Source: Eledone cirrhosa
Taxonomy: Eukaryota
DNA: 64,000 nucleotides
Direction of reading: 5' to 3'
NCBI GenBank assembly: GCA_964016885.1
Contig: OZ024741.1
Span: forward strand, 93,868,001 to 93,932,000
Under the pieces are notes generated by a model. It was not told the origin of the DNA and searched no databases. It saw only the letters and a list, made by a program, of their open reading frames with translations. The translations under genes were made by a program, and so were the position numbers. Position 1 is the stretch's first letter; each line of letters begins with the position of its first letter. This document shows, one piece after another, positions 27,501-60,500 of this stretch.

Positions 27501-30500
27501 GGGCCATGTTCGCGAGTAATGGAAGGCAGGAGGCTGAATTAAGTGCAAGAATTGCAGGAGCTGGTGCAGTAATGCTCCAGCTTCAGCATTCAGTAATCAG
27601 AAGTGAGTTAGGTGAAAAAGCCAAACTCGCTATTTTCAATTGGATATTCGGGCCAAACCTTACCTATGGTCATGAATCTTGGGTAATGACCGAAAGAATA
27701 CGATCACGAATGCAAGCGGTCGAAATGGGGTTTCTTTGAAGGGTCTTTGGAGTAACGTTACTCGATAGAGTGCCTCCAGGCAGAGCCGCTACTTCTCCGA
27801 ATCGAGAGATCACAGCTCTGATACTACGGTTATGCCCCAGGAAAGAATCTCTGGATACATTTTACGGGCACAACCAGTCGGTAAGAGACCTAGGGGTAGA
27901 CCCCAAGCAAGATGGTTGGATAATATTTATGAGCTTGTGAAAATTTGGAATGTAATCTAGGTATATCTATTATTTCCCTTTGTGCTCTCTCTTTCTAATT
28001 TATCTGCTTTCCTGTTTCCTCTAATATCTATATGGCCAGGTATCCAAATCATTGTTAAATTACGGGACATAAACATAGACATTAGCAAAGACGTACACAC
28101 ACATACACATACACACACACATACATGCACACACACGGTGGATTTCTACCAAATTCCACTCATAGGTATTGGTCAACCCAAGGCTATAGTAGAAGACACT
28201 TGCTCAAGGAAGCGTGGGTCTGAACCCAGAACCACCTGGTTGTGAAGCACATTCCACAACAACACACGCTCAGGGATATAAATAAATAAATAAATAAATA
28301 AATATAAAAACCTTACTTGTAATTAAGAAAGATTTTGTTCTTCATCGTGGCTGGAATTAATGTACTTAACGCTGTAAAGAACTGAAGAAATTCGGCTGGA
28401 GCGGTTTGATTATCTAAATTCATAAGCTGGAAATTGAAAGAGAAAAATCTAACAATTGTTTCTACTATAAGCACAAGGCCAGCAATTTGGGGGGAGGGAG
28501 GGTAGAGTCGATTAAATCAACGCCAGTACATTACAGGTGCTTTATTTTATCGACCCCATAAGGACGAAAGGCAAAGCTAACATCGGCGGGATTTGAACTC
28601 AGAACGTAAAGGGCCGTAACTCTATGCTGAAAAGCATGTTGTCCGATACTCTACCGGTTCTGCCAACCCACCGCCCTTATCTAATACTATGACCGACTTG
28701 AGCCAAAAATCACCGAGACAAGTAGATTAGCTTGAGCTATATATATTTAAAATCATACTGTAATGGGATAAAATATTTGCTGTGCATCATTGAATATACT
28801 AGCAGAAAAACCACCCCCGATCGGTTTTCTGCTAGCATGTGTAGTGTGCATATTGATATTATATGATTATACGCAAACATATATGCATGTAGATATGATA
28901 TGTCAAATGAAAAGTAAATTGACAATATGCACAGTAATCAGTAAATTAATCCATGATACATTTTAAAAAAGACGATATTATATATAAACTGCATTACAGC
29001 AAAATGTTATGAAAACGGAAAAGGAGAAAATGAGATTAGCGACGGAAATATAAACGTTATGATATAACGATGCAAATATAGCATACGGCGAAGTGTTATG
29101 ATATAACGGACACTAGTGTTGACATTTGAAAATTTAAGAAAAAGTGAATCTTGAAATATGCAATATATTATATATAAGAATATTTATGTTTAATCAAGAG
29201 CTAAGAAATTTAGTAGATAAATTACATAATATTCATTCATGATTTATTTAAAGTAATCCAACTTATTCTAATAACGTGTTTAGAAAAAATAAAGCTGTCA
29301 CAGTCTCGTAGTTCTCCAGTCATTATATATTAGATTTTGATCCCAGTATTTTTGCAAATGTAAAAAAATGTGTTTGAATATGCATTTTAGCAAATGGTAG
29401 ACACTCTTGATACACATCATATATCCACAGTAAGTTATGTGTTAACATGCACACAATGTACTATTTTATATATTGCATGGTGTAACTTTTGTCACTTTAT
29501 ATCAGGTAGCATCACATTCTGTATGTAATCTATCTATCTATCTATCTATCTATCTATCTATCTATCTATCTATCTAACATCTAGCTGTCGTCTGTTCTAC
29601 AGTGTGGATGTCATTCACTTCGCACAGAAGTTTTGTTCAAATTTATTGAGGAAATTTTGTGAGTTCAAACTTAATTTTGATACAATTGTGTAGCTTGACC
29701 CTCCGTCTGAACTGTCAGGCGGTGGGTCAGCTCATCTTTACCCCTCCTAGAGGTGAAAAACCTGTTTTAAAAAAAATTTTGTGTAAAAAATTTCAATCGT
29801 CTAACAGAAATGTTAAACGCAGCGAACGAAAATAGTGGTGGGGGGACAGCGGTAAGAGTTGTAAGCTCGCACGCTTTAGTCCTCCCTTCCTTCCCAACTA
29901 ACGTCATAGAGAAGGAAGGAAAAATGAAAATAAAAACGGACGAATCTGCGGAGAAAAAATTAAATGACGAAAACAACGAAAAAAAAAAATTTGAAAAATT
30001 GCATGACAATACTAATAACACAAACAAAGACACAACAAACAAAAAAATAACAGTTGAAAATAACATAATATCAGAAAACAAAGCAGACGACAAGATTTCA
30101 TTTGCACAGAAAACAAAGAAATCTTTGACTTATATAGCGGAAAACATTTCAGATGTGGTACGAAGGATCACGGACGCAAAACAATACATAAGTGAAGGTG
30201 AGAATGGTATTTTATTGGTAAAAATGCCTCAAGAATTCACGAAAGACATTGAAAGCCGAACGGTCAAGTTTCGGACCATCAACAACAGTACAAAAAAACC
30301 TGAACAGCCTTCTCAAGCAGATATCAAAACAGTACTCGCAGAAGTACTGAATGAAACAACTTTCATAAGAAAAGACAGACTGTATGGAAGCCTAGCAATT
30401 ACCATGAAGAACGAATCGGCGGCAAAAAAATGTGCTTTGTCACCGATTCGTTCGAAAAATTTCACCTTTTATCCATCTTATATGGGAAAAAAAACTCAAC

Positions 30501-57500: not shown

Positions 57501-60500
57501 AATGGGGATAGAAAAATGTAAAAGCTATAAGGCAGACTACACCAACAAGAAACATTAGATAAAATAACTACATCGCATCAACAATAACTATACTAAAACA
57601 CATACAATCCATATAAATCAGGCAAGGCATACATAAACATATAATTGAAATCCCACAATGCAATGGAGACTTCCAAGGGTCAGACTCCAAACGAGTATAC
57701 AGTAATATTCTTATGGAAGTGTCACAATGAGCCTGAGGGATGGGTCAACCGCCATTCCCCCACACAAGGGGTCCTTCTCCAACTCTTGATTAAACAAGGC
57801 AGGCAGTGTAAATGCACGTGGACTGGGGTCGTCTTGCTCAATGACCTCAAATCGCTGAACATAGATGTGGTGGCCATCAGTGAGATTAGAATTTCCGAGG
57901 CACGAGTCTTCACACACATTTTCGGTGGCTACGAAAGAGAACTTTCTAGGAACTGGAGAACTTTCTAGGAACGTCCTGCTCTTTAGTGTTACTGAGTGAC
58001 TGAAACGGTATCTTAGACGCACGCTGGGACTATGTGGAGCTAGAAAATAGAGGAAGAAAGTGTAAAAGCTTCACAAATCTTATCAGACGTTGAAAACGTC
58101 TGATATATATACCGACTGGGTTTCCAGAAATAGCATAGTCAAACCGTATCGGGTTATCTAGTTCATATCTAGATATTATATTCCGTAGGGAAGTAGATAA
58201 GGTAGCATATGTTGACCGTAATTCAAAGTAGTTGACAACACACATCACCAATTTGTGATTTGTATAGTCGACTTTGACAGGAATCCCGTTACTGGAAGTT
58301 ATATTCAAAGATTTATAGTCAATCTCCTGTCATTCATCCATAAGTACGTGGTGAACATAATTAATGTTTTCCTTGGTGGGGACAGTTGCAGGATGTCCTG
58401 CCCTTGAGTCATCTTTAAGACCCCCCACCCTAATTTCAGCTGCCTACTTTTGCACTACTAATAAAGCCGAATCCACATCCCCTAATGTAGCAAGCATGCC
58501 AGCGTTAATGTCTTTGGGTGCTAAACCATTTTTCTGCAGGTACTTGTTAACACCACAATATCAAATTTTGTTTATTTTCAAAAGAAGTCACAACTAGTTA
58601 CATTTGAAGTCTTCTTTGAATAGTTAAATGTGAGTTTACCTGGAAAGAAACACCGCTCTTATTAATAAGAAAAGTTGAAATTATTGCACGCAAGAGTTTA
58701 CAACTCAAGCATCACTCCTTTTTAGTCGGCCTATGAATTTTTTAGCGCACCCTCTTAAATATAGATTAATATGTATGTATGTATGTATGTATGTATGTAT
58801 GTACGTATGTATGTTTTCTCTTTCTCTTAATTTCGAGTATATTTTTTTGACCGGCCACCTTCCTGGTGGCAAGGTTGTAAAAGAAAAGAAATTGTCATCC
58901 CTTGAATCGCAAGAATGTTTTGCAAATTTTGAAGGTGCCAGCTATCGCAGCCATTTGTAGACTATGAATTAGGGAGCTGCGCTTTTTGTCCGCAAATCCA
59001 AGTTCAGTCATACTTTGGTCCATGTATGTATGTATGTATGTATGTATGTATGTATGTATGTATGTATGTATGTATGTATGTATGTATGTATGTATGTATG
59101 TATGTATGCATATAGACATAAATAGACAGACAGACAACAGGTAGACAAATAGGCAGATAGATAGACAGACAGACTGACAGATAGGTGGGCAAACAGATAA
59201 ATAGATATATTTCTTTATTTGCCACAAAGGCGCACAAGAAAAGGGGACAATACAAAGACACATGCCGGGGATTTTACATACAGTCGTGTAAAAATGTTGA
59301 AACAAACAATTATAACAATCGAAGAACACTCTTATCAGCAGAAACTACCCACCATCCCTAATCAACAATGGATTCTAACGTACCCTAAAACTCAACATCC
59401 AGGAACTCAGACACCCCAAACCAGGAATGAACCGAAACAGAAAACTCTACCATACATCTCCACATACAACCCCCTCAACAATGAGGCATTCGACACCATC
59501 CTCCAAACATTCTTTTACTAAAAAGAGACCCAAGAATGAATAAAATCCTCCAAACACACAACATCATAAAGAGTAAAAGACAACCTAAATCCATAAAAAA
59601 CATCCTCACACAAGCCAAAATCCAGCCAACCCTGACAATGAACCATACAGTAAAAAAATGCGGAAGGCCCAACTGTGGTATATGCATAACACTAATAGAA
59701 GGTTCAACATTCCACTTTAAACAAGGACAACATTTCACAGTTAAATACAACTTTACATGTGCATCTGAAAACCTAATCTATGTTTTGACCTGCTCAGGTT
59801 GTCGAGAGCACTACATAGGACAGACAAAAAACAGCCCCCGACAACGTATGACCGTCCATAGATCACAAATCAAAATACAGGAATACAGAAAGATTGCTCT
59901 TAGCGAACATATCGCCAATTGTGCACCTAACCAACTACCAAACTTTAGAATTTTCCCCATTTACAAATTCATAGACAACGCTTCTTTCATCCAACGTACT
60001 AATAAGGAAACGTACTTCATTAACAAATTCCAACTTCTACTTAATGGACTAAACTTCGGACTAAACTAAAACTAGAACGTACAATGGACCCTAGACCCGA
60101 ATTCCTGTGTTCTCTAAAGAGTTACCTCCCTTACACCCTACCTAATCCTTTTTCTTATATAAATGAATTACCCCCTCTCCTCTCTTTCTCCTACCCTACC
60201 ACCCTGAATTACCTCCCCCTGCATATTAATTCTCTAAAAAGGGAAAACATCTCCAGTCCCGGACGGCCATTTGCCTCCTCCAAGAATGAACTTCTTTAAG
60301 CGATCTTGCCATAAAAACAATGTTTGAACTGCTTATCCTCAAAAACCATGTTTATAAATAATATTATTCTTTCTTTCCCATTACCTTAACATGTTTAACA
60401 ACACCTTATTTTGACTTCAAAAACCATATTTATATATAATATTATTCTTTCTTTCCCATTTCCTTAACATGTTTAACATCACCTTATTTTCTCTTCTACA

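Follow-up and report, generated by a model that had tools for sequence, protein, structure and literature searches.

Tx1-like LINE copies adjoining TATC, ATT and TTC microsatellites in an Eledone cirrhosa contig

The stretch described here, 64,000 nucleotides of the octopod Eledone cirrhosa (GenBank assembly GCA_964016885.1, contig OZ024741.1, positions 93,868,001 to 93,932,000 of the forward strand; hereafter the window), holds seven copies, named A to G, of one lineage of long interspersed nuclear elements (LINEs) that is Tx1-like and belongs to the L1 group, and that lies next to TATC, ATT and TTC microsatellites. The association between these LINEs and microsatellites is not due to chance and is far above random expectation within the window. 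Copies A and C are full-length but broken, B and E are 5'-truncated, D is internally deleted, F is without its 3' part and G is without both ends. An initial annotation had listed five copies, overlooking G, F and an inverted 5' end of D at 48126-48240. The copies appear to be intronic, with minus-strand exons of a gene for a dynamin-like GTPase and protein kinase on both sides. The copies and their flanking tracts are the following.

8981 to about 11520, plus strand: copy G, both ends lost, no flanking repeat
29528 to 29576, plus strand: 5' tract of A, (ATCT)12; the ATG of open reading frame 1 (ORF1) follows 233 nt downstream
29577 to 35374, plus strand: copy A, full-length L1-group (Tx1-like) LINE with ORF1 and ORF2
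35374 to 35442 (perfect part 35374 to 35421), plus strand: 3' tract of A, (ATCT)12(GTCT)4(ATCT)2, no poly(A)
43729 to 45144, plus strand: copy B, sister of A, 5'-truncated, with neither TATC nor a target site duplication (TSD) at the 5' junction
45147 to 45163, plus strand: 3' tract of B, (TATC)4
48126 to 48240, minus strand: segment H, the inverted first 115 nt of the 5' untranslated region (UTR) of D, starting just after an ATT tract
48243 to 48444, minus strand: short interspersed nuclear element (SINE, 48264 to 48444) with ATT tail (48243 to 48263), between C and H
48445 to 48481, minus strand: 3' tract of C, (ATT)12
48482 to 54350, minus strand: copy C, full-length, ORF1 with several frameshifts and stops
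54351 to 54378, minus strand: 5' tract of C, (ATT)9, where the D inversion has its right breakpoint
54376 to 55758, plus strand: copy D, internally deleted, with the remainder of the 5' UTR and the start of ORF1 joined to the ORF2 C-terminus near 55290
55759 to 55879, plus strand: (TTC)40, following D at its 3' end and flanking F at its 5' end
55880 to about 58300, plus strand: copy F, decayed, with 5' UTR, ORF1 and a third endonuclease domain (about 57790 to 58280), 3' part lost
59124 to 59209, minus strand: degenerate TATC/TGTC 3' flank of E
59210 to 59325, minus strand: copy E, a 3' UTR fragment only, whose 5' junction abuts a Penelope-like GIY-YIG fragment and has no TATC

The 10-mer AATAAAGAAA occurs five times when both strands are searched, at 35365, 45135 and 55749 on the plus strand and at 48484 and 59210 on the minus strand, and a simple repeat begins 0-2 nt past it at all five termini, as the initial annotation had claimed for five 3' ends with a common terminus. 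Four of these 3' tracts are perfect, which is defined here as at least 12 bp, and consist of (ATCT)12, (TATC)4, (ATT)12 on the minus strand and (TTC)40; the fifth, at about 59205 behind copy E, is a degenerate TATC/TGTC run that falls below this cut-off. Poly(A) is found at none of the five AATAAAGAAA termini. The T-rich strand is the sense strand of the element in all five 3' tracts, AATAAA stands 4-6 nt ahead of each of them, and the region from +10 to +30 past AATAAA lies inside the tract in every case and is 45-70% T.

Copies A and C carry the repeat on both flanks, and their 5' tracts (29528-29576, ATCT; 54351-54378, ATT on the element strand) have the same unit and strand as their own 3' tracts, so the matching 5' repeat proposed earlier for the full-length copies is borne out. 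At B and E the 5' repeat is missing, and D has ATT on one side and TTC on the other. The window contains 85 perfect tracts, and a random point outside LINE bodies has a probability of 0.068 (slightly low, two tracts being lost at mask edges) of lying at most 10 bp from one; the joint chance for the four perfect 3' ends, by arithmetic from this value, is about 2e-5. For a tract of matched unit and strand at most 250 bp upstream, the upper limit of P is 0.010 for TATC and 0.016 for ATT, and the two matched 5' flanks have a joint chance below about 2e-4. All three perfect TATC-class tracts in the window touch copies of this lineage, all three perfect ATT-class tracts lie within the cluster formed by C, the SINE and D, and one of the four perfect TTC-class tracts touches lineage copies; no free TATC tract occurs in the approximately 44 kb of other window sequence. 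A tract abuts the 5' end in the four intact or near-intact copies (A, C, D through segment H, and F) and in none of the three 5'-truncated ones (Fisher p 0.029, or 0.067 when G, which has no 3' end, is left out). A search for TSDs at A, B, C, D and E returned only repeat units or matches of 4-6 nt, with a control SINE giving 18 bp, and no TSD extending beyond the repeat was seen at A or C.

ORF2 matches the Pfam models Exo_endo_phos, RVT_1 and zf-RVT, which correspond to an N-terminal apurinic/apyrimidinic-like endonuclease (APE), a reverse transcriptase (RT) and a C-terminal zinc-binding domain, and its best PDB match is human LINE-1 ORF2p over APE and RT (E 4.5e-40), far above R2. ORF2 of copy A (31721-35159) is interrupted by a single stop at 32808 and a single frameshift near 32205; that of copy C starts at 52150, shifts frame near 49965 and contains stops in its C-terminal portion. 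The APE domains of the two copies begin at these same positions, 31721 and 52150. A separate ORF1 lies upstream, open in A (29810-31687) and present as broken homologues in C, D and F. It has a CCHC knuckle, CX2CX4HX4C, in A and C, for which Pfam zf-CCHC is weak in A (E 0.026) and absent in C, and its Atlas neighbours are CCHC/ZCCHC3-like at 0.90-0.91. A gag-like CCHC knuckle in ORF1 is a feature of the Tx1 clade and is not unique to it. Domains and ORF1 as read from the sequence place the lineage in the L1 group, and hallmarks of the L1 clade proper, of mammalian or plant type, are missing, with poly(A) at 0 of 5 ends and no TSD beyond repeat units. The Tx1 label, as an assignment made from such features, is reasonable and plausible. 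ORF1 of A also has a tandem duplication at 30837-31011, with a unit of 84 bp that keeps the frame, and the 3' UTR of B has a 59-bp near-perfect inverted repeat at 44945-45003.

The copies share 67-82% DNA identity in ORF2, and by this divergence each copy in the window is a separate family. A and B, which both end in TATC, are sisters in two non-overlapping stretches of ORF2 (support 98/99 and 95/99 in rooted trees with 8-9 close relatives) and also in DNA trees, with support 100 and 98. Their identity is only 74.6%, and sisters so far apart that still share the repeat argue that TATC use is heritable. Repeat type thus appears to follow lineage, a real signal but a thin one, from one clade of two. 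A 3' UTR tree of the five ends gives supports of 38-50, and E has no firm place in it, its nearest sequence being A at 82% over 78 nt. Among named proteins, those of Argonauta hians come closest, at 54-67% identity, and one of them forms a group with all window copies (support 100/100), which makes an octopod host likely. Bacterial and archaeal genome contigs, scanned twice, gave no relatives.

Copy D lies in a rearranged region. Segment H matches positions 1-116 of the 5' UTR of C (52 of 76 ungapped over 41-116) and D, from 54376 on, takes up the match with position 117 (24 of 40, a score reached by 0 of 20000 shuffles), so the 5' end of D is inverted. From these alignments, the 6.25 kb between 48126 and 54375 would be either a later inversion, or a misassembly, of a head-to-tail chain C-SINE-D-F joined by ATT, ATT and TTC tracts, or else a twin-priming product of D with the SINE and C inserted later into its ATT tract. 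No TSD supporting twin priming of D was found, and for this reason twin priming is not favoured over later inversion or misassembly. The SINE of the chain belongs to a family with an ATT tail, with further copies at 605-816, 8312-8518, 22047-22255 and 28468-28678, of which the first has ATT at both ends, because ATT units open its 18-bp TSD; ARAGORN found no tRNA gene in the family. The SINE at 22047 has a paralogous empty site within the window, near 25160. A weak match to the 5' UTR of C lies near 43009, scoring 46.5, where the highest of 12 shuffles reached 41.5.

The observed architecture, flanks, missing poly(A), AATAAA spacing, strand polarity and TATC clade are consistent with a mechanism, given an even chance of being correct, in which loose nicking at microsatellites is combined with an RNA pairing that fixes the repeat unit; nicking, read-through and pairing are its deduced steps. 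With a loose preference, the endonuclease would cut a simple repeat on its purine-rich strand, and repeat units at the RNA's 3' terminus would pair with the nicked strand and set the repeat used by the family. With T-rich sense strands in all five 3' tracts, priming would come from a purine-rich strand, which cannot pair with the A-rich terminus or with poly(A). Messenger RNA is usually cleaved 10-30 nt after AAUAAA. Cleavage of the element RNA would fall inside the tract and give an RNA that ends in a few repeat units and poly(A), the units of this read-through RNA standing between AAUAAAGAAA and the poly(A). Reverse transcription would initiate on the paired repeat and bypass the poly(A), which would leave none in the copies. 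Full-length RNAs that start in the upstream tract of the donor could pair with, or copy, the repeat at the 5' junction, which truncated cDNAs could not do. Copies would accumulate head to tail in shared tracts, as in the chain C-SINE-D-F before inversion, and the ATT tract around C, which also holds the SINE and the 5' end of D, fits a shared and reused target.

Models for the pairing step exist in the R1 clade. SART1Bm and R1Bm are APE LINEs in which an RNA 3' end resembling the target helps priming; in SART1Bm such an end brings accurate priming up to 76%, from 36%, and for R1Bm a requirement for target sequence downstream is stated (PMC7265360). SART1Bm keeps poly(A) at the junction, unlike the window copies, and the clades differ. 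RNA-DNA pairing has also been described as a possible filter after nicking (PMC1950540). Human L1, whose ORF2p has a hairpin loop equal in length to that of the window copies, has a poly(A) end and uses a T-rich strand for priming, in contrast to a lineage that has no poly(A) and whose primer strand would be purine-rich.

Several points weigh against combined nicking and pairing. With one copy per family in the window, per-family specificity cannot be established from it; for comparison, a target-specific Tx1 family has been defined by one target type in more than 20% of the family's flanks and by an identical target on either side of an insertion (PMC4494074). Neither a transcript nor an empty site nor a further member of any family came to light. 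The 5' UTR of A does not stand convincingly above shuffles when compared with C, D and F (6, 192 and 253 of 500), and, as the window has no clear homologue of it, the 5' boundary of A is inferred and not set by homology. Insertion inside a tract predicts a 5' remnant, and the absence of TATC within 60 bp upstream of B and E (0 of 2) therefore counts against simple insertion of this kind. The earlier proposal of insertion into a pre-existing tract is accordingly supported by the matching flanks of A and C and not by B and E, which have neither TATC upstream nor a TSD. The contrast of four against zero of three does not need RNA involvement, because in Utopia, whose targeting is strict, deletion can likewise remove the 5' target from truncated copies (PMC4640811), and it is further weakened by E abutting the Penelope-like fragment. 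Elements that generate their tracts would account for the lack of a free TATC tract no less well than elements that home in on existing ones. Finally, D has ATT at its 5' end and TTC at its 3' end, whereas heritable RNA pairing predicts concordance unless the copy is a chimera or has switched; D is possibly a chimera of two copies, through its internal deletion, and could for that reason be read as a warning and not as a refutation. The idea that one lineage reached several targets is likewise upheld in part, by the TATC clade of A and B and by the ATT and TTC flanks, and weakened by the disagreement in D and by families of one copy each.

A strict alternative, in which the APE of each family recognizes one repeat, as assumed for the Kibi and Koshi elements, and RNA has no role, is rather doubtful. 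It agrees with the matching flanks in both full-length copies, with the TATC clade of A and B and with the statement that the target is set mainly by the endonuclease (PMC4494074), and the hairpin loop, which affects target selectivity in L1 (PMC1950540), reads WRNHSGQSR in A and WTNRIGSSR in C, both of L1 length, with 4 of the 9 positions different. The loop is variable throughout the wider family, however, with 33 variants in 57 loops, and the decayed copy F, behind TTC, shares the NRIG loop tip with C, in ATT. The two truncated TATC copies have no 5' remnant, while a truncated LINE at 58815-59021 of the type with a restriction-like endonuclease has ACAT on both sides, and the flanks of D disagree. 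The divergence of the endonuclease is not elevated either: A and C, which retain the catalytic motifs, are 59% identical in APE and 73.5% in RT, and 41 pairs of relatives with 70-75% RT identity (taken from the 28 full-length of 153 close relatives, with 50 distant hits left out) have a mean endonuclease identity of 58.3% (range 48.9-65.8). An accelerated evolution of the endonuclease was rejected on this ground. The two APE domains had been put forward as a natural comparison for target recognition, which does not hold, as their identity is ordinary for that of the RT and both copies are broken; with about 40% of APE residues differing, the pair cannot point to specificity residues. The extended hairpin loop of the Xenopus Tx1L type, two residues longer than in L1 and with an RDGH tip, does not occur in A or C, and an LTx chimera needs two alignment insertions.

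Improbable to a somewhat greater degree is an origin of the repeats in the elements themselves, in which the 3' tract would be a slippage tail or a copy from the donor and the 5' tract would be copied from the donor or grown from a short duplicated seed. A long pre-existing tract would then be unnecessary and the elements would be a source of microsatellites, which is equally improbable. All perfect TATC tracts (3 of 3) touch elements and none is free, truncated copies have the repeat at the 3' side only, a window SINE owes ATT at both ends to its 18-bp TSD, and repeat tails are common in other LINE clades (PMC3747384). Opposed to these are the lack of a non-repeat TSD extension at A or C, the ATT tract that C shares with the SINE and the 5' end of D, the compound or decayed 3' tracts of A and E, which resemble old tracts, and the poly(A) that usually ends L1-clade elements (PMC3747384). 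That the copies lie beside repeats by chance, in a genome rich in them, or through an assembly error at repeats, is hardly credible: the number of perfect tracts in 64 kb is high and the 48126-54375 inversion could be a misassembly, but the joint probabilities of the matched 5' flanks and of the four perfect 3' tracts are too low, and every 3' tract begins 0-2 nt past the same terminus.

An extension of the pairing mechanism, which is unlikely, holds that the target is inherited through the RNA and not through the protein, the RNA carrying its own flank as a guide and seeding new tracts. The poly(A) signal would then be incomplete without a U-rich microsatellite, and only copies ahead of a T-rich tract would become donors. 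Landing in another repeat would switch the target of a family in one step with the endonuclease unchanged, and D, with ATT at 5' and TTC at 3', would be such a switch under way. If this were true, much of the octopod microsatellite load would be made by LINEs and partitioned among them.

Microsatellite targeting is already known in Tx1 elements. Kibi and Koshi of teleost fish are APE LINEs in (TC)n and (TTC)n (PMC4494074, PMC3812793), so TTC specificity was established before, as the initial annotation stated, and of the window copies only D and F touch TTC. The lineage described here comes from a cephalopod and would add TATC and ATT. In crocodilians, related Tx1 families (Tx1-1_Crp and its relatives) prefer tri- to tetranucleotide repeats, (TTCC)n or (TTTC)n, and a radiation over several microsatellite targets has therefore been described already (PMC4494074). 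The crocodilian targets are pure pyrimidine runs, whereas TATC and ATT contain A, and the crocodilian preference comes from many copies per family, against one per family in the window. For Octopus vulgaris, Table 1 of PMC13282606 lists 13 L1-Tx1 families of recent activity, with 421 insertions, and L1-Tx1 is among the families expanded in coleoids (PMC8967140); a word search of the excerpts of these two papers gave nothing on target preference or flanking repeats of cephalopod L1-Tx1. TATC- or ATT-associated Tx1 elements, or targeting in cephalopod Tx1, were not found in the open literature searched, a search that had Repbase, Dfam and subscription papers outside its range. The same literature yielded no microsatellite densities for octopus. 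TATC and ATT are thus apparently unreported units for Tx1-like LINEs, a novelty that is provisional, and these families likely extend the targeting known for TC, TTC and TTCC/TTTC.

Targeting of microsatellites is poorly understood and believed to be mainly endonuclease-based (PMC3812793), and the question at stake is how APE-type LINEs gain or switch target specificity. Closely related families (RT about 70%) with different units would allow the contributions of endonuclease and RNA to be separated, and the finding would bear on the origin of octopod microsatellites. If targeting is driven by the endonuclease only, the addition is modest, namely TATC, ATT and a mollusc host on the known list.

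Other features of the window include the host-gene exons on the minus strand, for example 47566-47913, 46628-46888, 8706-8987, 5637-6302 and 3176-3631, with Dynamin_N upstream and protein kinase downstream, a layout that resembles that of DSTYK-like kinases. LINE fragments of the restriction-like type lie at 58815-59021 (minus), 18417-19054 (plus) and 43067-43710 (minus), and are taken to be Dong/R4-like from a C-terminal motif. The fragment at 58815-59021 gave no Pfam hit; it is 5'-truncated and yet has ACAT on both sides, which suggests ACAT targeting. Elements with ATGT tails, presumably RTE-like, lie at 12419-13027 and 42249-42854 (plus), with further 3' ends at 12342, 37378 and 41521; the short element of about 610 bp at the two former sites is 96% identical between them and has ATGT tracts on both sides. 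This short element and the Dong-like fragments have the tract class in common, on opposite strands. Dong has been reported on TAA repeats (PMC3812793).

Another LINE family occurs at 13683-14030, 27498-27876, 47031-47400 and 62091-62669, and two of its copies end in (GAA)n, which is the TTC class on the strand opposite to that of D. Two direct blocks, 36669-38000 and 40806-42160, are 97% identical, each with an RTE-like 3' fragment, an ATGA/ATGT tract and long terminal repeat-like sequence, and may derive from conversion, template switch or assembly duplication; between them, at 38081-40414, is a 5'-truncated gypsy-type pol fragment with RT, RNase H and integrase. Retroelements meet head to head at 43710/43729 (B and a Dong-like fragment), 59325/59330 (E and the Penelope-like GIY-YIG fragment) and 54350/54376 (C and D), of which the last is explained by the inversion and the other two are possibly chance. 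Near-perfect palindromes of about 200-260 bp lie at 14830-15027 and 45280-45539, one centred on (AT)n and one just after the compound repeat of B, and a tandem duplication with a 78-bp unit and 94% identity lies at 60339-60490.

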